In this document: in pieces, positions 3 to 63,814 of the stretch
Layout: each line of letters starts with the position of its first letter
Position numbering within the stretch: position 1 is the stretch's first letter
Source: Cladosporium halotolerans
Taxonomy: Eukaryota
Direction: 5' to 3'
NCBI RefSeq assembly: GCF_011745625.1
Contig: NW_027191460.1
Span: 372,001-436,000 of the forward strand
DNA: 64,000 nucleotides
Made by a program: the position numbers and the translations under genes
Notes under the pieces: model-generated
The model's database searches: none
What the model saw: only the letters and a program-made list of their open reading frames with translations
What the model was told of the DNA's origin: nothing

Positions 3-2106
3 GGGAGCTTGCCGGCAAGCTCGTTGTCACTACCTCGTAGCCCACCGCGACCACTTGCCGGACAAGACAGCCAGGAAACCCTCGCGTATGAGAGGCAAGA
101 ATACCCGGAGACATCATCGCCGAACTTCATCGCCTTCAACTCGTCGAGTTCGCGTTCCCCAGACAGCCCGCTTCACAACGCGTCATCATTCGATTCCATT
201 CAAGGCCGTCTGAACAACGCCCACGCATACCGTCTTGACGACCTCTCCCCGGGCAGCTCTCCGAGGTCACACTACCGATCATCCTCCGCAGACTCTCTCC
301 CACCACTGCATGTGCCCAGGAGGCGCGAGCAAGAACAGCCCGAGGAACGTCCGCAGTCAATGGCGGCACCGGACAACATGGACTATGAGGAGATTGATTT
401 GGAGCCCTGGCCCCGGCAGCCATTCACCAGCCACCTGAGTACAATCGCAAGTGAGAGTGATAGGGCAATGTCACCGGCGCAGTTCAGTCATTTTTCAATG
501 GGTAGTGGTGTACTTACCATCGACGACGCGTGTAGCATTCCCATGTCAGCAGCGATGTCAAGGCATTCGGGCCACATGTCTCAGTTCTCGCAGTCGGGCC
601 ACCTTTCGCAGTTTTCCCTTGCCCGCCGAGCGAGCGAGCCAATGCAATCGCCGTCGCCGAAGTCATCGCCTCAGGTTACTCAGAGCAGTGGGGAGGATGC
701 CGGCGACATGACTTTGGGCATCTACCGTGCCGAAAGCGCAAAGCCTGAGCCGCTCTTCCGCGGTCGGAACGTGACGCCCGGCGGAGATGTTCGATACAAT
801 GGCCCGCTGCCGCCTTTACCGCCCATGCCTCATTCGAGAGAGGGAGACGAGAACGGGGACAGCCTCTCAGCGCTCTCAGCCCCATCGCTCAAGAAGAAAA
901 GATCTGGATATTCTATACGGGGACGGAGCAACAGTACGCCTTCTGGGAGCATTTCTCGGCACAACAGCGTCGTCAGCTATGTTGACAGCGAGCGGTGGAG
1001 CAGGAATAGCAGTGTATTCCCAGCATGGGCCAAGAACTTCTACGGCGGATACGCAGCTCTCTTGAGCGCCAGCAAAATCTCGCTATCAAACCCGCCCACT
1101 CCCCGGCCACGCGATGCGCAGGGCCACGTCCGGAGCCAAAGCCAATGGACCGAGCGCAGCATCACTTCCCGCCTTGGGACAGGATACAGCGAGATTGAGA
1201 ACGGCAGCCCGACAAGCAGCCACTTCCTCCCCTCCATCTTCCGCCCCCGGACACGCACTCTCGGCACGATGGACAGCGAAGCGCGCTCCTTCAAATTCGG
1301 CAGCAAGACCCCGAAGCGCAAACCCTCCAAATCCTCCGGTAGCATCAGCCGTACCGACTCCATGGCCATCACCGCCGACCCCTACCCCCCAGCCGACAAC
1401 GCCGGCGACCCCAGCGCCGAAACCCTCCCCTCTGGCCACCCCAAATACGGCAAGCTCAAAGACAACTCCTCCCCGCAGCCGCCCATGCCTCCCCTGCCAC
1501 GCAAATACTCCAAGCAGAAACTCTGGGACGAAATGTCCTTCCCGCGCCCCATGACCAAAGACCGCCTGTCGGACTTCAAGCTCAACCACAGCGACACCGA
1601 CCGCGCGGACGCAGAGAGCACCGGCCCCCACCTGCGCCCCAACGCCCACCGCGCCCCGCACGCGTACACCTGGCGCTCGCCCTCTTTCGTCGAGTCCCTC
1701 GACACCCTCTTCTCCTCCCGCGGCAACCGCCAGATCCTGCTCTTCGCCACGGGCTTTCTGTGCCCGCTGCTCTGGCTGCTCGGCGCGCTGCTGCCGCTGC
1801 CGCCGAGGCACGCGCGGGACGCGGAGGAGGCGGAGAAGGCGCTGCCGGGCGCGGCGGAGAGCGAGGACGATTTGAAGGCTGCGCTGGGCAGGCATCAGGT
1901 GGGGGACGCGAGGGCGAGGTGGGACGAGGAGAGAGCGTGGTTGAAGGCGAGGTGGTGGCGGACGCTGAACAGGGTGATGTGTTTTGTGGGCGTGGGGGTT
2001 GTTGCTGCTGTGGTGAGTTTGATGTGTTTGCTCTTCTTTGAGAGATGGATATGTGTGCTGACTCTGGCTTTAGATCGCTCTGGCTGTCATCGCTACGAGA
2101 CGATGA
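3..2106 (+). CDS. Ser/Pro-rich fungal protein with C-terminal transmembrane segments (5' end lies outside the window)
   Basis: Frame is open from the window edge. Long S/P-rich region, then hydrophobic segments (ILLFATGFLCPLLWLLGALLPL; VMCFVGVGVVAAV). Intron 2013-2073 (GTGAGT..GCTGAC..TAG) gives last exon IALAVIATRR* with TGA at 2104-2106. Confidence 0.75.
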
Positions 2107-2449
2107 TCGTTTGCCCTTACCGCTTGGTCCTCGACCCGCATCCCACGACCGTTCGTTCCGCCAGGCAGACCTTCTTCCGAAACACTCTCCCACCGCCAAC
2201 ACTGGGGCTGAACACGAAATCACCCCGCAAACCACAGAATCGCACCCAGCCTTTTCTCCCTCCTATCAACCGGCTCCGCCTCGCAAAGACGACGCACAGA
2301 CCGGACTCTCCATCGCTTCTCTTGGACTTCTTTCCCCCTCTTTACCCATCAATCTCTTTCTCTATTCTGCCAAAGTTCTCTTCGCCTTCTGGACGACGAG
2401 CGCTTTTCTTTTCTCATCTGCTTTTACATAATGATGATACCCACGGCTG

Positions 2450-3878: not shown

Positions 3879-5328
3879 ATGGGATCGGTCGGAGTCGCGA
3901 CGCAGCCTTTCCGCGTGCTTATTGCGGGAGGCGCATACGGTGGTGTTTCTGCTGCGATCAATCTTTTGGATCTGTCGTTGGGCAGACCTGCGCGCCTCGA
4001 GCCGGACAAGGCGCCTGCCGAGGAGGCTCGTGGGGGCGTTCCGGTTAGGATTCATATCGTTGATGAACGGGATGGGTATTGTAAGATTGAAAGACCGAGT
4101 TGATAGAGTATGAACACTGATGTGACCAGATCACACAATCGGTTCGCCAATGGCTCTGTCATCACCAGAATACGCAAAGAAAGCCTGGAGGAAATACAAC
4201 GACATCGCCGCACTGCAACATCCAAACGTCCGCATCACACAAGGCAGTCTCACCAAAATCGACCCCGATCGCAAACTAGCCAGCATCAAACTCAGCACCG
4301 CCGACAGCGAGCCCCTCGAAGAGCCCTACGACTTCTTCATCGCCGCCACAGGCCTCCGCCGCGTCTGGCCCGTCGTGCCCCAATCCCTCACGAAAGAATC
4401 CTACCTCACCGAAACAGCCGGCCACATAGCCAACATCTCCGCCGCATCTCACGGCACCGTCATCATCGGCGGCGGCGCCGTCGGCATCGAAATGGCCGCC
4501 GAAACCAAACTCTACCACCCCTCCACAAAAGTCACCCTCGTGCACTCCCGCGCCAGCCTCCTCTCCTCCGAGCCCCTCCCCGACGAAACCAAAGACGCCG
4601 CCCTCACCGCCCTCCGCGACGCAGGCGTCGACGTCCTGCTCAGCCAGCGCGTAACCAGCACAGAGCCTAGTATCGGCCCGGACGGCCGCGCGCTGCAGAC
4701 TCTCACTCTGCAGGACGGCTCGCAGCTCGTAGCCAGCAACGTCATCAGCGCCATCTCCCGCAGCGTGCCCGCGACAGCCTACCTGCCCAAAGCAGCGCTC
4801 GACGCCGACGGGCTGGTCAAGATCGATCCTTTGTAAGTGCTCTCTCCCCCCTCTGCCCAGCCCAAACCAAACCCCGAACCAACCTAACAACACCAGTTTC
4901 AACTTCCTCCCCCTCCACCCGCACAACACCTCCCACCTCGCGATCGGCGACCTCGCCTCCTGGCCCGGCATCAAGCGCTGCGGCGCGGCGATCGCGATGG
5001 GCACGCGGGCCGCCGAGAACGTGTTCGCCCACGTGCTCTCTCAATGCCACGGGAAGCCGGTGGAGCTGCGAGAGTGGCCCGAGTATCCGGCTATGATTGG
5101 GCTGGCGGTGGGGAGGAAAGCGGTGGTTTATGATCCGCAGGGGGGCACGAAGTGCTCGGAGGAGATGATGAGGGTGTATTTTGGGGAGGATTTGGGGTTT
5201 CAGCGTGAGTGGTTATTTTCCCTTGGTTTTTTTTTCCCTCCTTGGTGGGGGGAGGGTGTGTGGATGTGTTGTGCTGACTTTTATTGGCAGAGTGTTGGGA
5301 TTATCAGAAGCTTGATGAGGGGTGGTGA
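3879..5328 (+). CDS. FAD/NAD(P)-dependent oxidoreductase, AIF/AMID (FSP1)-like
   Basis: Two Rossmann motifs (VLIAGGAYGG; VIIGGGAVGIE), IAATG and LAIGDL motifs. Introns 4081-4129, 4833-4896 and 5205-5290 splice in frame; stop TGA 5326-5328. Confidence 0.85.
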
Positions 5329-5499
5329 GGTTGGTTTGATGTTGACGACCGGAGATTGGGAAAGGTCAGGTCGGGAATGGGGACTTAGAGACGGGTTGAC
5401 GGGGCGATTGAAGGGCACCCCAAGGTATGAAAGCGAAGCGGCTGTGCTTGTGATAGAGAAACGAAAAATCCAATCTGTACACCCACGCGATATCTACAT

Positions 5500-7617
5500 C
5501 TACGGAAGCCTCACAGCCGAGCCCAGATTGAACTTCACCGGCTGGCCCGACATAGTCGCCCACATGATAAGAGGGTCGCTGCCGAGCTTGTCGCTGCTCG
5601 CGCTGCCACCGCTGCTCACACTGGCAGTACCCGGGAAGGTAACCGGGATAGGAACGCTGCAGGTGTTTCCATTAGTGGACACCGTGACGCCAGTGATGCT
5701 CTTGCCATCAGCCGAGTACGAATAGGTCAGCGCCGGCTTGCAGGCGTCGCGGGCCTCGCGGTCGAGGAAGACCTTGGCGATGTCGTCGTGCTTGAGCGTG
5801 ACAAGCGGCCAGTTGGTCAGGCGCACGAACTCCTGCACGACGGTCTCGACCCAGATCTGCAGCAGGGAGTTGACGGTCTGCGAGCCGACCTTGTAGGAGC
5901 CGACGCCAGTCGCGCGCATGTTGGCCTGGTGGAACATGTAGGGGTCCTTGCGCAGGCCGAGCAGGTAGCGGATCGTTGTGTCTTTCTCGAAGGTGAGCAG
6001 GTCGGCGAACTTGCCCGTGCCGCGGGAGTAGTCGGTCCACTCTTGGGTGGTGCAGGCCTGCGTGTCGCAGTCGTAGTAGATGGCGGTGGGCCAGCGTGGG
6101 ATGATGTTGAGGCCGGTCTGGCCGTTGGAAGCGACGGTGGAGTGGAGGAGGTAGTGGACGTTGGTGGGGTTCATGAGGACCGGGCGGCTGTTGTCGCCGA
6201 CGACGTTGGTGATGCCGTTGTCGAGCCAGGCCTTGATCACGTCGCCGTTGTGCATGCCGGTGATGGCAGGAGGGATGAGACCGGATGCAGAGAACTTGCC
6301 GGCGGAGATGCCGACTTGCTTCATCCAGGCTTGGTTGAAGAAGATCTCCCTACTAGCGTCGTGGTAGGTGGCGTTGTTGAGGTTCAAGTGAGTGAACGTG
6401 TGGGACAGATGTGCGAAGGCGTCACGGTTGGCCGCGGTCATGAACCACGTGGCCAGCTTGTCGAGCTTGCAGCAAGCGAGGGACCAGCTGTAGTTGACGA
6501 ACTCCGAGGGCCACATGTCGATGCCGGCTCCAGAGGGTTTCATGTACTCGAGATCGGGACTCACGATGGGAGAGTCGTAATAGACCGCATCGACGGGGAC
6601 GCAGGGATCGTTGTCAAGGAAATAGCCAGTGTTTGTTGAGTTGATAATGTCACCATTACCGTTGTGGCCAATCTCGACGAAGTAGTTCGATCCCGCGTTC
6701 AGACGGCTGTTGACGCTCTTCATCCAGCTGATGTGCGGCGAGAGATCGTTTGGCACAACTCTGTACGTCTTGCCGGCCGGGTAGTAGATGTCAGTGACGA
6801 GGTGCATGTCGTCGATCTGCGTGCCCAGGTAGACCTTCCTTGAGCCAGTGAACAGTCCTCGGGTGATCCAGTGGATATAAGCATGCTGAATAAAGTTGGA
6901 GGTAGCCGACCACTGGGTCGCAAAGCCGATGAAGAAGGCCATTTGCTCTCTACCGCTGAAGTTGTTGACAACACCAGCGACGCTGGACGATGCGAAGTTG
7001 CCACTCTTAGCAAACTGGGCAATCGCCCATGTCGTCTTGGTGTCGGCGACCTTCGCAGGGTAGTGATAGAGGTTCTTGGTGCTGACGGTTGCACCTGACT
7101 TCAGGTTTGCAGTGGCGAAGCTGGTGGTGTTGGTAAAGCTGAGCAACTGCTCAACGTTGTCACCGCAGCAGCCAACTGAGCCATCCGAAGCCGTCACAGC
7201 AGTCGTGCCAGTGGGAACATCAGGATATGTGTCCAGAAGAACCATGCGCACGCCAAACGCGAGCTGGTAGGCGTAGAGCGCGTTGTAATTATCTTGAGTA
7301 AGCGCACTGCGGTAACTGCCACCGTAGTTGTATGAAACATCAGCCAGGATGACAATGCCGCCGTAGTTGCCAGAGGTAGCCGTGGAATTGAGAGTCGGCA
7401 AAGTCACACCGGCTTGAGGAACGGAGACGAGCTGATAGGGGATACCGTAAGCATCGAAACCCGAGGTCGCCGAGTACGATGCATCTCCTTCAGCGGCGAG
7501 GATGAGGATGGTGCTGCTAACACTGCCGCCGGCAACAGCGGCGTTCGCCGTGCCAGCAACAGACGCCAAAGCTACAAAAGTAGCGGCGAGTTTGCGAAGC
7601 GTAGACATGGCAGGCAT
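5500..7617 (-). CDS. Secreted Agd3-like (CE18) polysaccharide deacetylase
   Basis: Intronless ORF with signal peptide (MPAMSTLRKLAATFVALASVAGTANA). Deacetylase metal motifs TQIDD and SHTFTH, plus PPAITG, VGDNSRP and YMFHQAN, as in galactosaminogalactan deacetylase Agd3. Confidence 0.8.
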   Translation of the reverse strand: MPAMSTLRKLAATFVALASVAGTANAAVAGGSVSSTILILAAEGDASYSATSGFDAYGIPYQLVSVPQAGVTLPTLNSTATSGNYGGIVILADVSYNYGGSYRSALTQDNYNALYAYQLAFGVRMVLLDTYPDVPTGTTAVTASDGSVGCCGDNVEQLLSFTNTTSFATANLKSGATVSTKNLYHYPAKVADTKTTWAIAQFAKSGNFASSSVAGVVNNFSGREQMAFFIGFATQWSATSNFIQHAYIHWITRGLFTGSRKVYLGTQIDDMHLVTDIYYPAGKTYRVVPNDLSPHISWMKSVNSRLNAGSNYFVEIGHNGNGDIINSTNTGYFLDNDPCVPVDAVYYDSPIVSPDLEYMKPSGAGIDMWPSEFVNYSWSLACCKLDKLATWFMTAANRDAFAHLSHTFTHLNLNNATYHDASREIFFNQAWMKQVGISAGKFSASGLIPPAITGMHNGDVIKAWLDNGITNVVGDNSRPVLMNPTNVHYLLHSTVASNGQTGLNIIPRWPTAIYYDCDTQACTTQEWTDYSRGTGKFADLLTFEKDTTIRYLLGLRKDPYMFHQANMRATGVGSYKVGSQTVNSLLQIWVETVVQEFVRLTNWPLVTLKHDDIAKVFLDREARDACKPALTYSYSADGKSITGVTVSTNGNTCSVPIPVTFPGTASVSSGGSASSDKLGSDPLIMWATMSGQPVKFNLGSAVRLP

Positions 7618-9710
7618 TGTACCCACTGAGAAGGGGGATTCGAGAAATAATGAACGAGATGGCAAAAGCCACGATCGAGCGGCCGTTGCGGGATCATATA
7701 TGGATAGTCTTCATGGCAGCCAGCCACGTTTTGCCGCGGCGGGACCTGCCCAATGTTGCATTGGGATGGTCTATTGGAAAGTCGACGCCCTTTACGGGCC
7801 AATTGGGTCAGGTCATGTCAAGAAAGGCTTGGTACTCACAAGCTCACACGGCTATATCGGCGACCAAAAGCGCCACAAAGCCTCAATGGAGTGGTGAATT
7901 CAGGGTCTCAGGGGCCGGGGCCTTCGTGAGTCGTCAGAAGACGGCCCATCTGCACACGGCTCGACCTCGAAGCGTATTTTCCATGTCTGTTCGGGAAGCT
8001 GAATTGCTTTTCCTGCTCAAAATCGGCGCTGTTGTGGTAGTTTGCAGCGGCACGGGACCTAGAATCGCCGGGAACCCTAAGGATAGTCACGAGAGACCCG
8101 CAAGTGCGCAAGCGGATGTTTCCATCGTGTCGCATTTTCCAAATGGGCTGGCGCTATAGGGAAGAGGCGGGGTGGGTCGCCACGAGATTGGCCGGCGAGG
8201 AAGCCTCGTCGAGTCTATACGAGGCGGAGGAATCGTAAAACTATGCTCCCTTGCATTATCAGAGGGGGACTTGCCTTTTCATCATTTCGCTAATGGCCGC
8301 GTTCATGCGATATTTCCACAGAGGATGTCACCTTTCCAAAGGGGTTCGGAGGAAGGCTGCAAATGGACGAGCAAGACGGACGGTTTGACGTGTGTCCTGT
8401 CCTGTTCAGCACCACGTGCAAAGACGGCGACCGCCCTGCCAAGAGCATGCCCCTACGGCGCATCAGCACACCAGCGCATCAGGCGACGCTGCCGTGGCTG
8501 CAAATTTGCTTCAAGCCTCGCAAGCCTCTCTGGAGAGGAGCTTTTCTCGACTGTGGGGGGTAAAACTCTCCGACCGGACGAGACTTTCGGCATTCGATTC
8601 TGCCACGACGGCTCGAGGGCGGAACGGGAGAGTGTACCTGCATCTCAGAGCCGTGCTGATGCTCCTCCGCACTTCTCCAGGCTTCCCGCGCAGGAGATCT
8701 TCATCTGCGGTCTGGATGCCTGATCACTAGTCATGTCCAAGATCAGTCTTTCGCGTGGCGATCTCGTTGGAGTAAACGCATCCGGGCGTGCGGCTGAAGG
8801 TCGTGCGTGATGGAATACTGTAATCAGGCGGGTGGTATTTTTAGGCATACTTTTAGGCGCTCGCTTACAAAGGGCTAGACGCGAAGCCGGGGCGACAAGC
8901 AGCAACGTGCTCCCCTGCGGTTGAGCGAGACGTTTGCGGAGTGATGAGTTCAGCGCCACTTCGCCATTTTCGTGCAGGCAAAGGGCCACGCGACATGAGA
9001 GAAAAATCAGGTAAGCTAGCCATGAGGGCTGGCCGGGTCTTGAATGCCAGCGGGAGGCTGCAGTCGACAGCTGCCAAACGCGTGTCAAATAGCACTTACC
9101 CCCATGCTCAGCAGGTACAGTAGCACGCCAAGATCATGTTATCATGCACGTCTCCGCAAGAAGCTGTCTGATGATCCTGATTCTTCATCAATTCTTGGCG
9201 GAAGGGTCCGAAGGCGAAGTTCTCAATTGCGTATTCGCATTGTCGTTGTTCTATCCGGCTGATGAGTAATCGCACGCATTCCAATCTTCCAGTTATTAGA
9301 AATCGGCGTCGGAACAATGGTTGCTCCGCAACACATGAGAGGCGAGATAGGCATCGTCCTCGGAATGGATTCCGTGAGATCATGCAGAAACGCGGTGGCA
9401 CCTTGTCAGCAGGCAAGGAGACGTGCATAAGCTTGCACAACTGTAAGATGTGCGTGACCTGCATTTTGGCATCCAGGCAGTGATTATCAAGCAACCTGGA
9501 ATCAATCAAACCACGAGAGATAGGTACGATAATCCTATCGCTTTCACCAGCGACTGCAGGCAGAGAGCAAGAATCGTATATTCCACGAATGAACCTCCTA
9601 AGAGATAATAGAAATACTCTGAACGTATTCAAAAACCCATCATCATTGTTTCCGGCCTTCCCCAATACTCGACTGATTACCTTGACATTGTATCAACCAC
9701 CCCAACCAAC

Positions 9711-10704
9711 ATGCCTGCGAAATTCGACCCAGATCGCGACATCCCTGACCTAAGCGGTAAAGTAATCGTTGTCACTGGCGGTATGAACCACCTCGAACTC
9801 ACGGCAAAGTGCAAGCCTAACAACATCTACAGGCAATGCCGGCCTCGGTGCAGAGACAGTCCGCAAACTCGCCGCCCACAACCCAGCCAGCATCTACCTC
9901 TGCGCCCGCAACCCATCCAGCGCCGAGTCCCTGATCACCGACATCAAATCCCACCACCCCACCGCCAACATCACCCCCATCAAACTCGACCTTTCCTCCC
10001 TCGAGAGCACCAAAGCCGCCGCCGCCTCCATCCTCGCCCAAACCCCCCGCCTCGACATCCTCTACAACAACGCCGGCATCGCCCTCACGCCCCCCGCCCT
10101 CACATCCGAAGGCTACGAAACCCAATTCGGCATCAACCACCTCGGCCACGCCCTCTTCACGCAACTCCTGCTCCCCACCCTCCTCAAAACCGCCTCCTCG
10201 TCCCCCAAGAACTCCGTCCGCATCATCTCCGTCTCCTCCACCCTGCACGCCCGCGCCTTCCCGCACGGCCTCCTCCTCGCCGAGGCCAAAACAGACATGG
10301 CCCCCCACCCCGCCGCTACCCGCTACGGGCACTCCAAGCTCGCCAACGTCCTGTTCGCGAAAGCGCTCGCCCGCCGCTACCCCGAGATCACCAGCGTCGC
10401 GCTGCACCCGGGCTTCGTCGACACGGAGATGAACCGCGGCAAGGCCGGCGGCGCGAAGTGGTTCAGCTTGCTGATAAGGAATATTGTCGGCTGGGTCGGG
10501 GTGTCGGTCGAGGAGGGCGCGAAGACGCAGCTTTGGTGTGCGGCTGCGGAGGGGGTGAGGAGTGGGGAGTATTATGAGCCTATCGGGGTTGTGAAGGCGG
10601 GGTCGAAGTGGGCGAGGGATGAGGGGTTGAGGGATGAGCTTTGGGAGTGGACGGGGAAGGAGTTGAGGGCTAATGGGGGGCCCGGGTGGCCGAAGGGTGA
10701 GTGA
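9711..10704 (+). CDS. Short-chain dehydrogenase/reductase (retinol dehydrogenase-like)
   Basis: IPDLSGKVIVVTG, intron 9781-9832, then GNAGLG; LDILYNNAGI, QFGINHLGH, YGHSK (YxxxK), LHPGFVDT. Confidence 0.9.
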
Positions 10705-10873
10705 GGTGGGATGGAGATGGGAGGGTGCGGAGTGTGATTGATTCGTTTTCTCTTTTTGTTGCGGATTTTACATACTCAGGTAACAGGGCGCGTTGGTGCT
10801 CTCTGCCGTTTTGCGCGCCCCAGTAGTCATAGCGTCTCGTGGTCTCGTACAGTCGTTACTCGTAATGAATCCA

Positions 10874-35243: not shown

Positions 35244-35322
35244 GGCACGTCAGAACATTTGACGCCATTCTACTCTGACTATCTTCTCTCAGCCCTTCAC
35301 CCACCATTGACATCCGGTAATT

Positions 35323-37108: not shown

Positions 37109-37206
37109 GTGATGATATTCGGTGGTTCAGCATTAGATCGGGTATGATATCTTCCCTCCATTGACAACGTTGTTGCGCTGATCCATCTATGCAATGACGG
37201 CCACCA

Positions 37207-45932: not shown

Positions 45933-46872
45933 GCGAGAGATTCCAGTCTTTCGCTGGCGATGGGGTCATGTCGAGGTTGATGTCGCTGCCTCTGGACGGG
46001 TTTCTTTTGTCCGGATGTCATGCGAATGAAATGGGGAAGAATGCAACAAATAGTAACGACGATTGCAACGTACACGAAAGTAATGCTTCGAATGGAAAGG
46101 GAGTTTCGGACTTTCAGACGATGTGCGAGTGCGTCTTGTCTCGTTTCAGCACGCAATGCCACATCTGATGGCGTGCTTGCGGGATGTCCGCTTGTGATCC
46201 CGCGCTGATGAGTTCGGGCTCCCACGTGATGGCAGCCGGGACGGCGGCATGTCATGGTACTCGAAATAATGATGGAGTGTTTTGTGTTGCATCTGGCTAC
46301 CGGACGACACCTCTCGTTCCTATGGGACCTTTCGACTGGACGGCGAAATGCCAATGGCGCACACTTCGTTTCGCAGCCGACCGCACATCATTTGCTCTCG
46401 TCCACCTCACCCCTCACCTCGTCCCATAGAAGGCTTCGTTTGAGCTCCAACCGAACAATTGACACCAAACCTATACACACACACCCCGCCATTAACACTA
46501 CTCTTTCTCCACGAAGCATTCGTCAATTATCCAAATTAGATCACCAAATTGCCACCTCACCATCTCCAAGCGGGGCCTCGCAGAGGCCATGCGGGGCAAC
46601 GACCACAACGTCTTTGCATGAAGCATAAACGCAACCTTACTTTTTAGTGACCCAAATGGCCATTACGTCAATCCGGAAATCCCGGTAGCAGAGACACCAA
46701 GAATCAGTGTTCCCGCACGACAGCCAGCTCCAACTTCATACCTCTCCACGTACCTTGCCCAAACCTCCAACACAAACCGGCAAACCGCACCGCTCAGCGC
46801 ATCCCAAACACAACAAACCCCCTACCACCACCTCCCCCTCAAACCCCAACTCCCCAACCCAAAAACACAAAA

Positions 46873-47634: not shown

Positions 47635-47914
47635 GTGAGTGGGATAAGACTGGGGGTAAGTCTCTAGTTACAGGAAGCTATACAGAGAGGCCATTGAAGA
47701 GGAAAGAAGAGAGAAACTGAATTTACAAAGTGCCGTGACCCATTTGACGTGATTACAAGGGAAAGCGTAAACGCGGACGCCAGTCGCTAAACCCATCAGA
47801 AAACCATCAAGCATATCCGCCGCAAACCAGACGAGTACCTCCGAACAGACGGGTATACGTGCAAGGGAAAACGAGAAAGGAGAGAAAGGAGAAGTGCTCC
47901 ACCCGGAAGCGTCA

Positions 47915-53096: not shown

Positions 53097-54140
53097 GGCC
53101 AACGCGGGCCCGCCACGCGTCTCACTTGGGATGATGGCATTGTCGCAGTTGGCACACGAGATGGCTGGAGCGGCCCAGTTTTCGCGATGCGCTAGGAAAA
53201 GCTTCTACGTACCTGTGCCGACAGCTTCACGGCGAGGGTCCTGGCGAGGGCTGGCGCGGCCGGAGTGAAGACCGCGAGCTGGTCTTGCAGGTCGCTGAGC
53301 AGCTGTGCCTGGTGTCATACAGAGCCGGAGAGTCGCAGACCGCAGGCATCGCTACCGCTGCATGAGCACGGTCGCAGTCGGAGTCGTTGGGCGCTGCGGA
53401 GGCGATACCGGGCGGTTGCTATGGGCGCAGGGAAGGCTGACGCCTGACGGTGCACGGGGCAGGGTGGGTGTCTGAGGCGGGCGGGCGGGCGGTCGAGGGT
53501 CGAGGTCGAGGGTGGAGGAGGATGGTAGTGGTGATCGCGGACGTGCGTCTCGCCAGGTTCGAGTCAACGGGCGGGCGGGCGAACAATGGAATTGTTCGAC
53601 GGTGGTCAGCGTCGGCGTTCGGGAACAGCAGCTTGACGACGCCCGGGCGGAGCATCACAGGCTCAAGCAAAAGCAAGCGGGCGGCGCCTCTTGGTGTAAA
53701 CAATCGGGCCAGCTGCACGACAACCAGGCGCGCTAATCTCAACTGCCGATCCACTCTATCGCCTGCGCTGGCGGCGATCTGCAGCACTTCCACCAAGGGC
53801 ACCACCGTGCGCTCGCCTCCCCTACAATAATACCTTACACATCCTCCCACGCGGTGTGCCAGCGAGACACCATGTGTGCGTCGTGCCACCCTCGCGCGCA
53901 TCTGCTTCCATCGAGCTTCTGGCGCCGACCGCGATCTGCAGGCATGGCACGCTTGGTACTGTGAGAAATGCATACACGAGCGCTGCAGCTGACACTCCGC
54001 ACCCGATGTCCGACACTGACGCCTTGCGTCTGGAGTGCAGCAGGAAATCCTGTTTATTCCAATAACAATTCAAGATACTTTCGTCCGTCCCTGGCTCACC
54101 GCCTCAACAGGCCCAGCGCACGCACGCCGTCGCCAAACGA

Positions 54141-55861
54141 TCAAGCACACGCACTGTAGTCTTCCAGCCCGGTGTCCGGCACTCGTGCTTCGGGTAAGCA
54201 CAGAGCGACATCTTCGCCCTGCAAGCGAGTGAACACCCTCTCGTGCTCGCGCTGCAGCGGTACGTGTCAGCAGAGGCAGCCTGCGACTCCCTTGGCATTG
54301 AGATCCGACTCACCTTGGTCACTTTGATGAACTCGCGATAGATGCCATCCTTCATCATCTTGCGCTTGACCAGGTCTGACACGCCGCCGAGGAGCGCGGC
54401 GACGGTTGTCACTTTGCTGTCCCAGCTGACAAAACTCGACACGGCGGTGCCGTCTACTCTCTCGCTCTCCGTGCTCCCGTAAGGGTTCTGCATCTTTTTG
54501 CCGAGGACCATGTTCCTGGCGGCGATCAGTCCTGGCTGACTCAGCCTGTGATGACAACGAAGGACGACTTACCACCACCAGGCAAGACCAACGGCTCGGC
54601 CTCTCTTACCTTCGACGAGCACAGTCGGGAAGACGCTGTATGGCGTTATGACATCGAGCTCCTGCTCAGGCTGGAAAGATATACTCGGCACGCCAGCGTT
54701 CGAGATATAGCCAATGATCTCGCCACTGGAGTCCGTCACATTGTTGACCGAAGCATACATGCCGGGTATGCCCAGAGCCTTCGAGTTGCATGTCCGGACT
54801 CGCTCCGCGTTGGTGAAGATCCGCTTGACGATCGGCACGTCAAAATACGGCATCTCAAGAATCTTCCACTGCTCGTGCGAGGAGAACCAAAACCCCTTCT
54901 GCACTGTGATCGGTCCGACGCCATTCTCCTCATACTCGACACTCACCAGCTTCTCCCGCTTCCGAGTCCACAGCGCCTCCTTCTCCTTCTCCTCCAACCC
55001 GCCAAAGAAATACAGCCACCACGTCATCAACTCCCCCTCGTACGGATCATCCAACAACCCCGTCCCCTCACACTCATACCTCTGCCCCTCCGCATCCGGC
55101 GCCAGCCCTTGATCCAACGTCGCAACCGCACACACACCCCCCAACCCACCCCGATAAAACACCCTCGCCGCATTCCCCTTCGCATAATCCAACCAACCCT
55201 GCCAACCCCCCGCCAACTCCTCCTCCCCCCTCCTCTGCAACGCCTCCACAGCCCCATAAACAGCCCACAGCAACTCCCCATTGTCCAGCCCCGGCACGCG
55301 CCCCACCCAGTCCCCCGTCGGCTCCACCGCCTCAAACGTATTATTAAACCACGGCAGGAACCCCCCGAAGCCAGGAAACGTCGCGTTGAACTTCAGGTAG
55401 CTCTCCAGCTTGGCCCTCAGCAGCTCCTCCGCGACTTTGCCCGCTTCGCCCGGCGGCGCGTCGGGCGCCACGAACTGCGCCGCGTCCGCGGACCCCGCGA
55501 CCGCGCGCGCGAGCACCATCACGTGCAGGGCTTCTTTGCTCGCGGCGCTGAAGTTGTGGCGCCCGGCGCCGGAGGGGGCCGCGAGGCCCGTGAGAGGGTC
55601 GAGCAGGGTGCCGTCATAGGTGAGGCCGTTGGCGGCGTTGTAGCCGATGCCGGGCTGCGCGAAGCGTGCTTCCCAGTGCAGGAGAGCGTTGGTGAGGGTT
55701 TGGGGGTTGGCGAGGATGGAGGATTGGGTGTGGAGGGGGGCGAAGCGGCAGGGGGGTTTTGGTTGGGGTGGTGGTGGGGGTGCTGCTGCTGCTGATGATG
55801 ATGTGGTGGTTGCGAGGAGGGTGGGGAGGAGGAGGAGGAGGGTGGTGGGGAAGGGGGGCAT
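54141..55861 (-). CDS. Secreted endo-beta-1,2-glucanase-like protein (GH162-like)
   Basis: Signal peptide MPPFPTTLLLLLPTLLA; motifs HNFSAASKE, FPGFGGFLPWF, PGLDNGEL, DDPYEGEL, WFSSHEQWK, PYGSTES, VSWDSK. Introns 54516-54572 and 54252-54313; stop 54141-54143. Confidence 0.72.
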
Positions 55862-57150
55862 GGTTGGGGTTGTGTTTTGATGCAGGTAGGCGGATTTCGG
55901 GGGGATCTTTGATTTTTTTGTATCTCGTGGAATCACGACCGGGCTACATGCAGGACTACGTGGCGAAGTGCTCTTGTTTTATAAATGCCTTGGAGTCAAG
56001 GCAGCGAATCCATAGATTATGCTTCACCACTGCGGGGTTTGGCTCGCGGGTTGGCACCGAGGTTCGGGGAAATGATGATCGCAATGCAGATCCAAAGTGT
56101 TTGATGGTATGATAGCCGTAGCCTCTCCAGTATGAAGCCAGATGGAGGACACTGTAGTATATGATCCCAGCTCAATTCGCGTGCGGGTCACAGAGAGTCA
56201 TCGTCCGCGCTCATGATATTGGTGTCTCGATGAAGCGTTAATGAGGGTTGGGCAGAGTTTGAAGCAAGGCCAATATCCTCGTAGTAATCGTGTCTCATTC
56301 GATTAAATGATTCGGTAAGACAATGCGAATGCCGTCCAGGTTCATTGATTCTTAGAATATCTCTCCGTCCGTAGCCTGCTGAAAGTCATGGGCTTCCACC
56401 GAGTCTGAGCTGCTATCGGCCCTGCCCACAGGGGCAGCGTTCCGAACCCGACGTGGATACCCAAAAACACTTAGGTCGGAGCAAATTGCCTGGAAATTTC
56501 GTATGTCTCCCAGCGGGGGCTATGTAGATCAATACATCATACCTAGAGCATCTACACTGGTGATGGCTCTGAGTTTGGGGTTACGAGGGTTAGGGTTGGG
56601 GTAACGCTGGGGGCGCAACTTCGCCTCAAAAGCCAGGAACGAGACGAGACATTCATGGGAACTGACACTGCTGCTACGCGTCAATGTCAACCATTTGCTT
56701 GCGCTGAAGAATGGGACAGAAGGTGTTTAAGGTGAAGAAGTCATGACATCAAGTTACAATTCATTTCGAAGGCAGCTATGAAGCAGCCCAAGTATACACA
56801 TACACGAGACAAATCACAATGAGACTCACGAGGAACAACAGAATTTTTTTGTGAAGTTTTTGTGTCTCTGTCTCTGTCTCTTTATCATGATTCCATCGCC
56901 AATTGGCGGCGCGTGCTGTGGCTAATTATGTCTCAAGGAATGTATGCCATCACTCGAACAAGCTGCGTCGAGGCCCCCATCCACCCAGTTTTCCGTTCCC
57001 ATTCTATGTATTTGACCACCCTGTCTCGTGTGTGACGGATGGTAAGGAGAGTCATCGTGCTGCCCGGAAAGATGCACGATGGTGATTAAACTCCGTCACT
57101 TTTGTTGTTGCTGTTGTTGCTGTCGGGCGGAATCGCGAGGTGCGCGTTGT

Positions 57151-59634
57151 CTAGTTGTAGCTGGGAGGGCTGGAGGCGGAGGCGTCCTTGTCCTCGTCCT
57201 CGCAGTCGTCGGAGTCGGGCGAGGAGGCGTCGGCCTCGGTCGAGGTGCTCGCAGTGCCGTAGGACGACGGAGCGTTGCTGCCAGAAGAAGCGTCCGCGGT
57301 GGAAGAGGGGCTGGGGGCGGAGCTGGAGGAGTCAGAGTCGCTCCCGCTCGAGTAGCTGGAGGGAGCGTTGCTGCCAGAGGAAGCGTCCGCGGTGGAGGAC
57401 GGGCTGGGGGCGGAGCTGGAGTCGCTGCCAGAGTTGCCGCTCGAGTAGCTGGGGGGAGAGCTGCTGTTGTCGGGAGTGGAGGTCGAGGACGGGCTGGACT
57501 TGTCGCCGGAGGAAGCGTCAGCGGTGGAGGAAGGGCTGGAGGAAGAGGTGGACGAAGGCTTGGAGTCGTAGCTGCCACCAGCGCTGCCCTTTGCAGAGCC
57601 AGAACCGCTGGCCGAGCCCGAGCCCGAGCCAGATGCACCAGCCTCACCAGAGCCCTCGACGGAGCCAGAGCCAGAACCGCCAATGGAGCCTGAAGCCGAA
57701 CCGCTGGCATCACCGCCAACAGAGCCAGAGCCGGACGCCGAGCCGCTCGCATCGCCACCAACGGAGCCCGAGCCCGAGCCAGAAGCAGATCCAGAACCGC
57801 CAACCGAGCCAGATGCAGATCCGCTGGCACCGGCATCACCAGAAGCGTCAGCATCGCCGCCAGCGCTCACGCCGTCAACGAGAACGCCCTCAACCTTGCC
57901 CTGGTCCTTCTTGCCGAGAGAGCCGTAGAAGTCAGCGAGCGCGTCGCCGGAAAGCTTGCCGCCGGCGGCGCCCTTGAGCGCAGCCTCAAGCTCGCCCTGA
58001 CCCTTGCCAGAGAGTTCGCCGTTCAGCTTGTTGGCGGCATCAGCAGAAAGACCGGCGGAGAAGTCAATGCCAGCGCCAGCGGAGCCGCTCGCGGAGCCCT
58101 TCGCGCTGCCACCCGCCGAACCGCTCGCCGAACCGCTCGCGGAGCCGCTCGCACTGCCACCGAGGCCGAAACCGAGGTCAGCGGAGCCCTTCGCGTTGGC
58201 GCCGCTGGAGAGGTAGCCCTCGAGAGCGGTCTTGTCCTTGCCGGAGAGCTTGCCCTCGAGGTCAGCGAGGAAATCGGCCGAGCCGCTGCCCTTGATGCTG
58301 CCCTTGGCGCAGCCCTCGAGGAAAGCGCCGAGCTCGACCTTGCCCTTGCCGGAAAGCTTGCCGGCGAGGCCAGCGATGATGTCGAGGACACCCTTGGCGC
58401 CACCGCTGACGTCGACGTCGACGGAGCCGCCAGCCTTGAGAGACGCAGCGGCGTCGAGAACGGCACCGGCGAGGGCGTCGACCTCGACACCAGCAGCGGC
58501 AGAGCCCTTGCCGGAGAGGCCACCAAGGATCTCACCGAAAGCACCGGCCTTCGCGCCGATCGAGCCGGAAACGGAGCCGCTCGCGCCAGCGCTGCCCTTC
58601 AGGGCACCAGAGAGGACAGCCTGGTCGTCGGCGGAAAGGCCAGCGGCGAAGCTGATGAGAGCTGAGCCAGAAAGGGAGCCGCTGGCGGAGGCATCAAGGG
58701 CAGCGTCGAGAGCAGCCTGGCCCTTGGCGGAGAGCTTGCCAGAGATCTGACCTGCGACATCCGCAGAGAGAGAGGCGCTGGCGTCGATGCCGAGCTTGGC
58801 AGCGACACCAGCGTCAGCGCCAACGCCGCCAGAAACGGAGGCACCAGCGTTGAGCGCAGCGCCGATGATCTTCTTGTCCTTACCGGAGCAAGAAGCGTAG
58901 AAGTCGATGAGGGCCTCGCCGGAAAGAGAGCCGTCGGCGGAGGCCTCGAGGGCGGCCTTGAGAGCAGCCTGACCCTTAGCGGAGAGCTTGCCCTCGAGCT
59001 TGCCAGCCGCCTCAGCGCTGAGAGAAGCGTTGGCGCCGAGTCCAAGGCTGCCGTTGGCGCCAGCCTTCGCAGCGCCGTCAGCGTCAACGCTGCCGTTGGC
59101 CGCACCGTAGGCGTCCACAACGCCGTCGAGAGCGCCCTTGTCCTTGTGGCTGAGCTGGCCCTTGAGCTCGCCGATGAGCTTGCCGACACCGCCGGCCTTC
59201 AGGTCAGCAGTGACGTCGCCCTTGCCGTTCAGGCAAGACTCAAGAGCAGCCTGACCCTTGGCAGAGAGCTTGCCGAAGAGGTCAGTGATGAAGCCACCAG
59301 CAGCGCCTGCCTTGGCACCGAGAGCCGCACCAGCATCTCCAGACGCGCCGGCAGAGCCAGAAACGCCAGCCGAGCCGCCAATTCCAGCAGAACCGCTCGC
59401 GCCGGCATCACCGTGAACACCGGCGCTGCCGTGGCCACCGAGACCGAGGCCAGCGAGAAGGCTTCCAAGACCGCTGACATGTCCAGAAGCGGAACCACCA
59501 GCGGATCCGTGACCACCCAGACCAAGGAGGCCGAAAGTACGGCGCTCCAGACCGTTGCCGCCAGCAGCATGGTAGGTCGGGGCAGCAGAGGCGAGAGCCG
59601 CGAGGGCAGTGATGGTGTAGGCGTATCTGACCAT
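57151..59634 (-). CDS. Secreted Gly/Ser/Ala-rich repeat protein (probable cell wall or surface protein)
   Basis: 827-aa intronless ORF; signal peptide [17 protein letters not shown]; Kex2-like ERR; strong C/G third-position bias; TATA-like GTATATAA near 59826-59833 on the minus strand. Confidence 0.85.
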
Positions 59635-61188
59635 TTTGATTGATAAGTGGTTGTTAGAAATTAACGAAAAAGATTAAGTGTGTGTTTTGTTGGATTTGTT
59701 GTAAACGAGAGTGTGTCTTGCAAAGACAGCGAAGGAAATTGTTCAAAGAGATGTGTGCGTGATAAAGAGACGAGACGAGATGAGATGGAATGATCAGCAG
59801 CAAATACCGGGGAGAAGAAGTCACCTTATATACATGCTCGTGAGCATTTGTTGGGTGCATTGCAGCATTGACCTACGGATCGAAAGGGTGCGAGACGAGT
59901 CGTGCGAGGAATCCCTAGGCGTAAGCGATGCGCTTCTACCAAAAAGACGTTGGATTGTGAGACGACAGTTGTAGGAGATGACTAGTGGCCATGAGTCGCG
60001 ATGCAATGGAGGCTCAACACGGCCTCGGTACGCTCGGGTCGGCAGGGCTTGCGGGCTGTTTGAACTCGTGCAGGCGCAGCCTAGAGTCCTTGCGTCGAAG
60101 AGCGAGACACCATGTCATTGCCGTCAATCATGCCTAGTATGACCGAAGTGAAGACTTTGGCAAAGTGCAGATGATGTGCTGAGTGTCAAAAGGCTAGCGT
60201 GGTGATGGCATGCAGATCTGGAGTAGTCAGGTTCCGTCAGGTTTCGGGGACGACGATCTCTTCGCCGCGCACAGACAACACGGCCCAGGTGAAGACCAGA
60301 ATAGGTGGAGTTAGCCCATCGTGGACAGCCGTCACTGTTTAGCACGTTTCATACGGCCCAACTTTTCGGTGGCGCAGACAATAGCCTGTGCATAACTCCA
60401 AGTCCATGCTCAGATCACAAAAGGGGGTTCCAAAACAGTACCTTCGCCGTGCGGGCGCGGGAAGCACGGCAATAGGGCAAGGCGGCCTCCCGTCCATGCG
60501 ATTCACGTCTCGAAGACGGACTGCCGACGGCGTCATCCCCGTCCACAGCGTTGAATGCAAGTATGGGCCTGGATGCAAATGCTCAGACGACCAGCGAGTG
60601 CAACAGTGGTCGTCCGGAGATCCCCGGAAGCGAGACGGTGCGGCCAGCATATGCTTGGAATTCCGTGACATCAGAGTGTCTCTTCCAAGGCAAGAAGAGC
60701 CGGAGAGGGAGAGGAACAGGCCATCGACGTTCACTTGAGGGGGGCTCGGTGTGAGATGGAAGTCCTTCTATCTGCTAGGAGGTGTTGCGCGTCTGCGCGT
60801 GCAGCCAGGGGCGCGACTCAGGCAGTTGCGCACACTGCTGGTTCCTGAGTCTGCGATCTTTGACGCATGGCAAAGTCAATTAACAGAGGATGCCAGTCAT
60901 GGCGGCATGCATGAGCACGCGTGCAGGCGGAGACAAACGCGAGAACGATATTATTATTGTCGAGGCGGTGGTGTTCAGCACGCTGCAGAAGGCGTTCGCC
61001 GGCTCCCACTTGACCCCGCTTCGCCATCCTGCCGGCCTTTGGTCCACCTGTCACCTTCGCTGGGCCGAGCCGGGAGATGTGTGCATTTCTCCGTCCAGCC
61101 TGAAGTCAGTGACGAGAAGTGTATTATATTTCATGGGCAGCATCTTCGTCATACCTGTTCTGTCGTGATGACCAAAAAGAAGCCAACC

Positions 61189-63814
61189 ATGGCACAAGCC
61201 TTTCAATCCCAGCGGCTGTCTTCTGGCTGGTCTTTGAAACAGACCGATACCGAAGACTGGCTTCCTGTAGCCCGAGTTCCAACGAACGTGCATTTGGATC
61301 TGCTAGACCATGACAAGTACAGCGCGACTTGACGGATACAATTTTTTTTTTTATCAATCACTGACGATCCACATAGGATCAAGGACCCCTTCCTGGGATT
61401 TAACGAACTTGATTGCGAATGGGTGGCCACCAAGTCCTGGACCTACAGAGTGGATCTGCCTGAGGTCGCACAATCTGTCCACGGTGCAAAACACATCCTC
61501 GCTCTCGATGGTCTTGATACCTTCGCCACTGTAAGGCTCGACGGTGAAAAGATACTGGAAAGTGACAACATGTTCATATACCACCGCATCGATGTTACAG
61601 AAAAGCTCAAGCCAGGCAAAAAGAGCACGCTTGAGATCGACTTCAGACCCGCTTTGGCAGAGGCGCAGAAGATCAAAGATGCTCACCCAGAGCATAAGTG
61701 GGTAGGCTTCAATGGTGACATGGCCCGCTTAGCGGTGCGAAAAGCGCAATATCACTTGTGAGTGACTCGGAGTCACTCGTCACAACGTTCGTCACGCCGC
61801 TAACGAATTCAGCGGTTGGGATTGGGGCCCGGTCTTGAACACCTGTGGACCTTGGAAAGATGTTCGCTTGGAGACTTACTCCGCTCGCATTGGCGATCTG
61901 CATGTCGACTACGGTCTCGACCCTAACCTGACTCAAGTCAAGGGCACCATCAACGCAGTAGTAGAAGGTTCAGTTGGTGAGAAGGTGGAGTTCAAAGCGT
62001 CTCTCGACGGAAAAGAAGTCTTCCACGCTGTTGCCGATTTGGACGACAAACGTAGGGTACAAGTGGATTTCCAAGTCAACGACCCTCAGCTATGGTACCC
62101 GCACGGTTACGGACAGCAGCCACTATATACCGTGACCGCTACGGTGATCCAAGACGGCCATGAGCTGCACACAGTATCGCATCGCACTGGTTTCAGGCAG
62201 ACAGAGCTTGTCCAGCAACCAGATTCTGTTGGCAAGACCTTCTACTTCCGCGTAAATGGTGTCGATGTCTTTTGTGGAGGCTCAGACTGGATTCCAGCCG
62301 ACAGTTTCACTCCTAGAATCTCCGAAGATCGTTATAGAAAATGGCTCGAAATGATGGTCGACGGGTATCAAGTCATGATTCGAATTTGGGGTGGCGGCAT
62401 ATGGGAGGATGATGTCTTCTACGACATCTGCGACGAGCTCGGTGTCTTGGTATGGCAAGACTTCATGTTCGGCTGTGGCAATTATCCAGCATACCCAGAG
62501 ATTCTCAAGTCGATCGAGGCCGAGTGCGTCTGCCAGACCAAACGTCTCAGGCACCACCCCAGCATGGCCATCTACGCGGGCAACAACGAGGACTACCAAG
62601 TCCAAGAGCAATACAAACTGACCTACAACTACGAAGACAAGAACCCCTCCAACTGGCTCAAAACCGACTTTCCCGCCCGCTACATCTACGAAAAGCTGCT
62701 CCCAGACGTCGTCGCCGCGCACTCCCCCCACATCCCCTACCACCCGGGCTCGCCCTGGGGCGACGGCCTCGTCTCCTCCAACCCCACCGTCGGCGACATG
62801 CACCAGTGGAACGTGTGGCACGGCACGCAGGAGAAGTACCAGATCTTCGACACCCTCGGCGGCCGCTTCAACAGCGAGTTCGGCATGGAGGCCTTCCCGC
62901 ACATCGACACTATCCGCCACTATGTGACGGACGAGTCGCAGCTGTACCCGCAGAGCCACGTGCTGGACTTCCACAATAAGGCTGATGGCCACGAGCGCCG
63001 CATCGCGACGTACCTGGTCGAGAATTTCCGCACCGAGACGGACCTCGAGAAGTTCATCCATCTCACGCAGCTTAGCCAGGCTGAGGCGCTGATGTTCGGG
63101 TACCGCGGCTGGAGGCGGCAGTGGGGACAGGAGAGGTTCTGTGGTGGGGCGCTGGTCTGGCAGCTGAATGATTGCTGGCCGGTGACTTCGTGGTCGATTG
63201 TGGACTATTTCCGCCGCAAGAAGCCGGCGTACTATGCGATGCGCAGAGTGCTGGCGCCCATCGCGGTCGCAGTCAAGCGTGCGCATCATGATTGGAGTGT
63301 CGTGCACGCTCGGCCCGCGAAGACGAGCGACTATGAGATGTGGGTTGCGAGCAGCAAGACCGAAGAGCTCGTCGCGACTGTGGAGCTGAGGTACATTTCA
63401 ATTGCTACGGGCAAGGAGATCAAGCCTGCTGTGGTGAAGAAAGACGTGAAGATCGTCGCCAACGGCACGACGGACGTATTCAAGGGCACGATCGACAACA
63501 CTGCGGAGGAAGCCCACGTTCTGGCTGCGCGCATCTGGGTGGATGGCGAGATTGTGTCGCGAGACACCGATTGGCCGCAGCCTCTCAAGTACCTGGACTT
63601 CTCTGACCGTGGCGTCGAAGTTATTCCGGAAGGCAACACGATCAGAGTGAAGGCAGATCGTCCTACGAAGGGTCTGGTCTTCGAGGAAAGGCAAGGGGTG
63701 CTCGTGCACGACAGCGCGATTGACGTGGTACCGGGCGACGAGCAAGTGATCAAAGTGAGAGGACTAGGTCAGAATGACCAGGCACTGGAGTGGAGATATT
63801 TGGGAAAACCATAA
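61189..63814 (+). CDS. Beta-mannosidase, GH2 (no signal peptide; MndB-like)
   Basis: DGLDTFA, RKAQYH|FGWDWGP, GSDWIPADSF, MIRIWGGG, WQDFMFGC, GNNE (acid/base), FNSEFG (nucleophile), WQLNDCWP. Introns 61317-61376 and 61758-61812. Confidence 0.95.

Follow-up and report, generated by a model that had tools for sequence, protein, structure and literature searches.

Why does the composition of a DNA strand reverse abruptly, and many times over, within the genes of a fungus? The question is raised by a 64,000-nt stretch of the Cladosporium halotolerans genome (assembly GCF_011745625.1, contig NW_027191460.1, positions 372,001–436,000 of the forward strand; hereafter ‘the window’), along which the + strand turns again and again from C/A-rich to G/T-rich. 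A preliminary description of the window listed about 12 such foci, spaced about 5 kb apart, and took them for gene-independent foci of mutation or repair, whether replication origins, hotspots of recombination and gene conversion, or R-loop sites. Here, we argue that each focus marks where a strand-composition polarity proper to a single gene (transcription unit) changes sign, and that this polarity stems from a transcription-coupled substitution bias, a reading to which we assign a probability of about 0.68. Three things were observed directly: the blocks are anchored to genes, silent sites and transcribed non-coding sites are affected, and orthologues retain the pattern. The cause, a transcription-coupled and strand-asymmetric substitution bias, is what we infer from them.

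The window has a G+C content of 57.0%, a CpG observed/expected ratio of 1.02, and a TpA value of 0.57. It is gene-dense and intron-poor, with about 21 genes distributed over both strands (Pfam matches on stop-to-stop frames), and searches of the whole window for tRNAs and Rfam families at the gathering threshold returned no hits. We modelled the genes ourselves from open frames, Pfam matches, and tblastn alignments, the introns being predictions based on splice motifs and an uninterrupted reading frame. Among named organisms, the best protein matches come from dothideomycetes of the Cladosporium/Capnodiales group (Cladosporium fusiforme, 71% identity; Recurvomyces, 65%). Skew was computed as (G+T−A−C), and switches were scored with 300-nt arms against a null of 200 shuffles inside 1.5-kb blocks. 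A + strand switch from C/A-rich to G/T-rich is written M→K and the opposite switch K→M; a base followed by ‘3’ denotes its fraction at third codon positions, and GC3 the G+C fraction there. The results describe one window of this genome, and the comparison between species covers one gene family.

That the C/A-to-G/T switches are real and strong is confirmed by the shuffles. The standard deviation of the 300-nt skew is 0.154, compared with a binomial value of 0.058, and 11 M→K switches score at least 0.4, compared with a mean of 0.66 in the block shuffles. The top M→K switch reaches 0.77, while the maximum per shuffle averaged 0.41 and never rose above 0.58. Eight M→K switches score at least 0.5 (at 1738, 5051, 10458, 24582, 25626, 36166, 47104, and 55523). 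Most of the centres listed in the preliminary description are thereby borne out: seven of the 12 have a switch scoring at least 0.5 within 300 nt (1790, 4990, 10420, 24650, 36170, 47100, and 55480), and four are moderate, at 0.33–0.44 (18330, 40170, 41640, and 62900), but the one at 26150 scores only 0.21. Weaker extra M→K switches, e.g. near 48300 and 53100, had not been listed. K→M switches are as frequent as M→K switches (13 versus 11 at a score of at least 0.4; 20 versus 19 at 0.3 or more), so that the sequence is a mosaic of alternating blocks and not a scatter of one type of focus.

This scale and density bear directly on the proposal that the centres are replication origins, each with a leading-strand excess of G+T on either side. 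The sign of the jump is the right one, since replication skew in bacteria and humans also jumps from C/A to G/T on the + strand at an origin, as Touchon is said to have reported in 2005. The two differ in other respects. The arms found here measure merely 0.3–0.9 kb, compared with tens to hundreds of kilobases for replication skew, and they end at gene boundaries, where the opposite switch follows. The 64 kb hold 11–19 M→K switches, depending on the score required, and an equal number of opposite ones (13 K→M beside the 11 M→K in the stronger class), a density that to our knowledge far exceeds any eukaryotic origin spacing. The centres, moreover, lie within coding sequences (CDSs), and the flip travels with a gene to other genomes (see below). 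We therefore regard origins as an extremely improbable explanation.

The strongest switch (score 0.77, core G+C 0.77) lies at 47104, in a + strand gene for an NAD(P)-binding, UPF0659-like protein (46380–47658; CDS 46873–47634). The sense strand of this gene is C/A-rich from 46380 to 47104, including the 490 nt that precede the ATG, and G/T-rich from there to 47658, with third-position skew passing from −0.76 to +1.00. Third positions of the first 60 codons contain C at 0.70–0.83, G at 0.07–0.20, and T at 0.00, T remaining at 0.00 throughout the first 90; those of the last 100 codons contain G at 0.62–0.87, T at 0.13–0.38, C at 0.00–0.03, and A at 0.00.

Across the window, the blocks follow the genes. 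Of the 13 K→M switches that score 0.4 or more, eight are no further than 130 nt from a CDS end, a zone that makes up 17% of the window (P=4e-4); these eight include two barely inside a CDS (19 and 34 nt from its end), and eight of the 13 fall wholly outside annotated CDSs. Conversely, nine of the 11 M→K switches of the same class are found within an annotated CDS, at 0.20–0.82 of gene length. The sense strand is G/T-rich over the final 100 nt before the stop codon in 18 of 20 genes (P=2e-4), and it is C/A-rich on average (mean skew −0.13 to −0.18) over −200 to +200 of 16 provisional start codons, i.e. first in-frame ATGs, known to be internal ones in the dehydrogenase and EST1 genes. Third-position skew rises along all eight short genes or exons (at most 430 codons; rho 0.19–0.95), climbing from a first-decile mean of −0.46 to a last-decile mean of +0.50. 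The 10 longer genes have a weakly C/A-type body, a dip in deciles 5–9, and, in seven cases, a positive last decile. Strong skew is a property of coding DNA above all: an absolute value of 0.25 is exceeded in 17.8% of 230 coding-like windows versus 6.1% of 179 noncoding-like ones, and four of the five noncoding-like windows above 0.3 adjoin CDS ends of genes that carry a focus. Within genes, the amplitude mostly rises toward the ends rather than toward the crossing point (5′ arms of the NAD-binding, dehydrogenase, and GH162 genes).

A pair of blocks of this kind reads alike on both strands, so that a gene in either orientation places an M→K switch inside itself and K→M switches at its ends. This explains why the preliminary description saw centres now at the 3′ end, now in the middle, and now in the 5′ part of genes, and its conclusion that the foci recur about every 5 kb independently of genes gives way before the positions just described. 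A simple transcription-linked gradient, which it had opposed to its own reading, comes close to what we find, in that the gradient is present in all eight short genes, but the crossing point varies in position.

The gathering of K→M points at gene ends can also be read in another way. These points, along with a few inside long genes, might be meiotic double-strand-break hotspots situated in nucleosome-free regions. The 3′ single-stranded tails would lose C and A, leaving the + strand G/T-rich to the left of the break and C/A-rich to its right; the M→K foci would be the junctions of tracts that issue from adjacent hotspots, and A-to-G changes peaking far from the break would yield a GC3 maximum where the tracts meet. 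The polarity of each gene would then record, over the long term, break resection at both of its ends, and would not be due to transcription as such. If true, the long-known excess of C where fungal and plant genes start, and of G where they end, would amount to a recombination signature readable from sequence alone. The polarity agrees with a published precedent, the strand-asymmetric mutagenesis that flanks human meiotic break hotspots, where the 3′ tail loses C and A (Hinch et al. 2023; PMC7615360, cited here and below from an excerpt). The likeness lies in a kilobase-scale, mirror-image asymmetry of C/A versus G/T around a point. In the human case, C>N and A>N changes fall on the single-stranded strand (the forward strand, left of the break), and the + strand would be G/T-rich left of the break; this polarity is a match for the K→M points of gene ends and not for the GC-rich centres. 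K→M points also have the lower mean core G+C (0.549 versus 0.645 at M→K points), and both flanks are skewed at three convergent gene pairs (at 5416, 10770, and 47658). Within the long RhoGEF-like gene, GC3 drops to minima of 0.35 at the internal K→M points. Block lengths of 0.3–0.9 kb match the scale of resection, a yeast tract being about 0.8 kb long. The related genus Zymoseptoria, finally, has many exonic hotspots (PMC5844332, likewise cited from an excerpt).

Break resection accounts for the geometry just as well, provided that the K→M points are the active sites. Several observations nevertheless make it unlikely. Resection on both sides of a break should mark the non-genic flank as well, but the promoter flanks of the GH162, oxidoreductase, and GH62 genes are neutral and that of the dehydrogenase gene is only weakly skewed (a small sample); the metagene of the 16 provisional ATGs contains no mirror block further upstream. 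Flanks of orthologues in other fungi are mostly neutral, and noncoding-like windows are rarely strongly skewed. Hotspots in Zymoseptoria, according to the same excerpt, are poorly conserved between species (PMC5844332), whereas the pattern described here persists down to 45% protein identity.

Recombination could alternatively act at the other set of points. The CG-dense core ascribed to the foci in the preliminary description is present at seven of the eight strongest M→K switches (G+C 0.66–0.77) and lacking at the one at 25626 (0.51), and GC3 reaches 0.95–1.00 at M→K centres. Such centres might be intragenic hotspots of recombination or repair, in which GC-biased gene conversion is combined with error-prone outward synthesis that makes the newly made strands G/T-rich. 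Their arms are roughly mirror-symmetric (C3/A3 versus G3/T3), their width of about 1–1.3 kb and few-kilobase spacing are of hotspot scale, and exonic hotspots are known from Zymoseptoria (PMC5844332). The polarity, however, is wrong: the left arm is C/A-rich on the + strand, the reverse of the human hotspot asymmetry, which is a yardstick from one species (PMC7615360). Furthermore, the arms are clipped at gene ends and unequal (340 versus 860 nt in the dehydrogenase gene; 380 versus 720 nt in the GH162 gene), skew increases away from the centre, and GC-biased conversion is described, in the excerpt consulted, as weak or absent in Zymoseptoria (PMC5844332). Hotspots at the GC-rich centres, the recombination scenario originally put forward, thus appear quite improbable, the more so as the flip of the NAD-binding gene is retained in four other fungal genomes while its crossing point shifts.

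If the blocks belong to genes, are they a by-product of protein coding? The preliminary description held that coding is not the cause and that the skew extends to synonymous sites, introns, and untranslated regions (UTRs), and both statements stand: the asymmetry peaks at silent sites, where its disappearance would have spoken against that description. In 12 pooled foci, fourfold degenerate sites located 40–80 codons upstream of the switch contain C at 0.75 and G at 0.13, and those 0–80 codons downstream contain G at 0.64–0.66 and C at 0.20–0.27. Across the same foci, the C fraction of two-fold C/T sites falls from 0.91–0.94 to 0.53–0.69, and the G fraction of two-fold A/G sites rises from 0.36–0.48 to 0.87–0.90. 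Third-position A goes from 0.12–0.20 to 0.04 and T from 0.04–0.06 to 0.10–0.26. First and second codon positions move less (C from 0.29–0.33 to 0.19–0.21; G from 0.21–0.22 to 0.31–0.34). Outside coding sequence, all three introns predicted within arms share the sign of their arm (−0.53, −0.35, and +0.48), and the single predicted intron outside any arm is neutral (+0.02). UTR-like flanks with the skew of the adjacent arm are found at 46380–46872, on the 5′ side of the NAD-binding gene, and downstream of the dehydrogenase and GH62 genes.

T accompanies G, and A accompanies C, across the window (r=+0.29 between (T−A) and (G−C) skew; n=320 windows). These data support the view that the asymmetry has the form of a transition bias, with T→C and G→A on one side of the switch and A→G and C→T on the other, as read on the + strand. 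The two-fold and fourfold shifts indicate that the main change is A:T→G:C on one strand per block, accompanied by a weaker G:C→A:T change of the same polarity. Even the encoded protein is affected: the keto-minus-amino gradient in the amino-acid sequence of the NAD-binding protein is 0.35, compared with 0.12 ± 0.11 in 109 orthologues, i.e. those 240–262 residues long among the 120 matches listed.

Whether such a pattern is imposed by mutation or maintained by selection on RNA or transcription has been asked before. Selection might act through avoidance of C toward the 3′ end, as considered by McLean and Tirosh, or in favour of an unstructured, C/A-rich 5′ part, and an adaptive hypothesis of this type has been published (PMC3315797, cited here and below from an excerpt). 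It would agree with the confinement of the pattern to transcribed DNA and with its conservation in orthologues. The A/T component, however, flips together with G/C, introns follow their arm, and protein composition is dragged along, all of which looks like mutation pressure rather than a tuned property of RNA. The two arms also lack sequence complementarity, and some fungal lineages do without the pattern in the same gene. Selection on the transcript therefore seems to us distinctly unlikely.

Comparison with other fungi was made through the NAD-binding gene. Metagenome contigs were scanned with an alignment of the protein, which yielded 80 loci, 13 of which were profiled. The flip from C3 to G3/T3 recurs in L001 (68% identity), in L002 and L003 (61%), in L008 and L009 (45%), and in the partial L011, and a weaker form is seen in L004 and L005. 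The fungal loci L006, L007, and L010 (52–53% identity) and the two bacterial-type homologues L012 and L015 lack it. In L001, L002, L004, L008, and L009, the pair of blocks extends from about 100 nt before the ATG to at most about 100 nt past the stop codon, between flanks that are mostly neutral; the L011 profile covers the locus itself, with its flanks left out. A gene-confined flip is thus present in four distinct orthologous sequences from other fungi, each with different flanks (five of eight fungal loci profiled), and its crossing point varies among orthologues from about codon 88 to codon 140. The flip is an old feature that stays with the gene and is restricted to certain fungal lineages. 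As a lineage-specific trait, it could therefore be mapped on a phylogeny.

The pattern has a described relative. McLean and Tirosh (2011; BMC Genomics 12:638; PMC3315797) reported that genes in most of about 60 fungi, filamentous ascomycetes being part of the data set, are on average biased toward C in their 5′ end and body and toward G at their 3′ end. The effect was seen at fourfold sites, reached into promoters and UTRs, and altered amino-acid usage; two causes were weighed, i.e. mutational regimes that differ along the transcription unit and adaptive avoidance of C. Our window agrees in having a C/A-rich ATG region and G/T-rich ends in 18 of 20 genes, in the involvement of fourfold sites (C 0.75 giving way to G 0.65), in a bias that enters the promoter or 5′ UTR and slightly passes the stop codon, with which window flanks and introns concur, in a 3′ skew that is strongest at the stop codon, and in a shift of amino-acid usage between the two ends of the protein. 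It differs in degree, as their skews are modest genome averages and ours are nearly complete in single genes (e.g. C3 of 0.00–0.03 over 100 codons). It also differs in kind: A-T skew was flat along the genes of McLean and Tirosh and went with G, which they used as an argument against deamination-type changes, whereas here the excess of A accompanies that of C and the excess of T that of G, both skews reversing at the same point. In addition, the crossing coincides here with a GC3 peak, and long genes carry several blocks. The behaviour of the A/T component is the reason for which we file the pattern as a variant, and it is an extreme, keto/amino-type variant of the already described fungal 5′-C/3′-G gene skew.

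A C-rich sense strand around the gene start, as found in this window, was also reported by Fujimori et al. (2005; PMC555766), who described GC skew (C>G) around the transcription start sites of plants and fungi; the opening of their abstract concerns the start site only and speaks of neither a 3′ reversal nor an A/T component. The window further invites comparison with GC-skewed CpG-island promoters and terminators of mammals. Its centres share with these elements a CpG-dense core, a + strand that is C-rich to the left and G-rich to the right, and a sense strand that is G-rich toward the 3′ end of the gene. They differ in lying within CDSs instead of promoters, and true 5′ ends are C-rich on the sense strand here, the reverse of mammals. 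The mammalian elements reportedly form R-loops (work attributed to Ginno et al., 2012 and 2013). The literature we searched held nothing specific that ties such a pattern in filamentous fungi to R-loops or to GC3 and hotspots.

How might transcription produce blocks of this form? The sense strand of a gene is C/A-rich from about 100–400 nt before the ATG, nearly all third positions are G or C mid-way, and the G/T-rich part runs to the stop codon or slightly beyond; short genes show one sharp switch, and long genes show it mostly in their final kilobase, plus weaker extra blocks. The main component would be A:T→G:C change, the A belonging to the sense strand in 3′ blocks but to the template strand in 5′ blocks, and the weaker G:C→A:T component would have the same polarity. 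In the version that we prefer, each block may be the initiation-proximal zone of a transcript, of the sense transcript starting at the promoter and of an antisense transcript starting at the 3′ end, and the switch may be the point at which the two zones meet. The non-template strand would be C/A-rich near initiation, as is known at fungal starts. Such zones would account for the fact that skew is greatest near gene ends and for the G/T-rich ends of both members of a convergent pair.

Several points weigh against this gene-bound, transcription-coupled interpretation. The preferred version needs antisense and internal start sites, which are hypothetical, and both transcript ends and antisense transcripts are things that we infer. 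The A/T skew, which here follows G/C, departs from the flat pattern published for other fungi. The placement of nine of 11 M→K switches inside CDSs is not significant taken alone (P=0.14), two of the 11 lie outside any annotated CDS, and three of the 13 K→M switches lie well within genes. Three of the 10 long genes (RSN1, ORF840, and DUF7730) have no G/T-rich last decile. The crossing point has no fixed place along the gene, and in the GH162 gene 338 nt separate it from the ATG but about 1380 nt from the stop codon. Directly past the stop codon of the first gene of the window, here called G1, the 3′ flank is C-rich. Lastly, the RhoGEF-like gene contains several alternating blocks (at codons of about 30, 880, 1270, and 1630), more than a simple gradient between two ends would give.

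Other candidates were considered and set aside. Repeat-induced point mutation is ruled out by the depletion of TpA and by the GC-rich arms. Codon or translational selection was rejected because 5′ blocks use Lys and Gln codons that end in A, and because introns and UTR-like flanks follow their arm. An inverted repeat or palindrome formed by the arms was rejected as well: the left arm, locally aligned with the reverse complement of the right, gave z within ±1 in six of seven foci (within-arm shuffles), and the complementarity at the GH162 focus (z=+5.9) is located in low-complexity runs. The notion of a strictly 3′-anchored focus was dropped, as the GH162 gene runs to about 54141, which places its switch near the 5′ end, and long genes have internal blocks.

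The effect matters because it can be read in single genes, whose silent sites go from containing no G/T to containing no C/A within about 100 codons; it is strong enough there for introns to follow the switch and for protein composition to be dragged along. The existence of related fungi that lack the pattern in the same gene provides a contrast by which the cause of the skew becomes testable. Genes of this type break the stationarity that models of codon usage, selection (dN/dS), and phylogeny assume, and skewed stretches often contain open frames on the wrong strand.

The individual genes bear this out to varying degrees. G1, on the + strand (skewed stretch 1000–2106), consists of an open frame (3–2012), a predicted intron (2013–2073), and a stop codon near 2106. 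It is C/A-rich from 1000 to 1738, switches at 1738–1764 (score 0.66, core G+C 0.72), and remains G/T-rich up to the stop codon, with third-position skew passing from −0.80 to +0.70; a K→M switch follows at 2087, 19 nt from the stop. Downstream of it, long T and CT tracts at 2380–2660 bring about an M→K switch at 2419 with a core G+C of 0.40, which is unrelated to the GC-rich kind. The pyridine nucleotide-disulphide oxidoreductase gene (4160–5416, +) is C/A-rich from 4160 to its switch at 5051 (score 0.69) and G/T-rich from 5051 to 5416, is bounded by K→M switches at 4160 and 5416, and has a C/A-rich predicted intron (4833–4896; skew −0.53). Next to it, a complete gene for an Agd3-type deacetylase (E=1e-168) occupies 5503–7710 on the − strand and encodes a CBM87, a deacetylase, and a C-terminal domain; the family name refers to galactosaminogalactan deacetylation, and the adjacent frames at 7600–9700 have no Pfam match.

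The short-chain dehydrogenase gene (9600–10770, +) has its switch at 10458 (score 0.73), between a C/A-rich block that begins at 9600 and a G/T-rich block that ends at 10770. Its decile skew goes from −0.86 to +0.93, C3 falls from 0.88 to 0.04, G3 rises from 0.02 to 0.72, and the predicted intron at 9781–9832 has a skew of −0.35. Two genes on the − strand come next: that of an endonuclease/exonuclease/phosphatase-family protein (17538–18710), with a weak switch at 18289 (score 0.44, core G+C 0.59), and SRP19 (23966–25088), with a + strand switch at 24582 (score 0.51, core G+C 0.67) and, upstream of the gene, a K→M switch at 25088. The GH62 gene (35300–36530, +) is C/A-rich up to 36166, where the switch scores 0.52 (1.12 in third positions), and then G/T-rich until about 100 nt beyond its stop codon at 36428.

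The thaumatin-family gene (39657–40600, +) has a moderate switch at 40139 (score 0.35), at which C3 of 0.72 gives way to G3 of 0.46–0.62, and the ATG43-family gene (42079–42900, +) switches at 42455 (score 0.41) after a K→M switch at 42079. Adjoining the NAD-binding gene is the 3′ end (47658–49000) of the RhoGEF-like gene, whose open frame spans 47799–53204 on the − strand. The + strand is C/A-rich at 47800–48300 and G/T-rich at 48300–48900, the third-position switch lies at codon 1612 of 1802 (score 0.82), and GC3 is 1.00 at codon 1560. A moderate internal switch also occurs at 62911 (score 0.36) in the GH2 beta-mannosidase-like gene (62487–63400, +), where C3 of 0.74 is replaced by G3 of 0.58.

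In the GH162 endo-beta-1,2-glucanase-like gene, read from the − strand (ATG at 55861, end at about 54141), the polarity affects the 5′ part, 54931–55920. The + strand is C/A-rich from 54931 to the switch at 55523 (score 0.69) and G/T-rich from there to 55920, and third-position skew goes from −0.95 to +1.00. The in-frame stop of its 469-codon frame sits in the GTAAGT donor of a predicted 57-nt intron (54516–54572, −); tblastn with full-length orthologues continues the gene to about 54141, with a second break near 54254–54281. Low-complexity sequence at 55753–55854 encodes a Pro/Ala/Ser/Thr-rich N-terminus, which appears to vary in length, the contigs of other strains being cut or different there.

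A different composition is found in an 840-codon open frame on the − strand (57154–59673), which has a G+C content of 64–70% and no Pfam match. Its first and second codon positions are G-rich, and nearly all of its third positions are C or T (A3 0.00–0.10); a clear C-to-G switch is lacking, and in no other gene are the last 100 nt C/A-rich.

Contig sets X4, X5, X10, and X15, mapped onto 37001–57000, all represent DNA and are about 2% diverged, and X15 also spans intergenic bins. Over 41270–41557, the depth of contigs from two other strains rises to about 640–700 in X4 and 461 in X5, compared with about 19 and about 10, respectively, elsewhere, and this segment is probably part of a multi-copy element.

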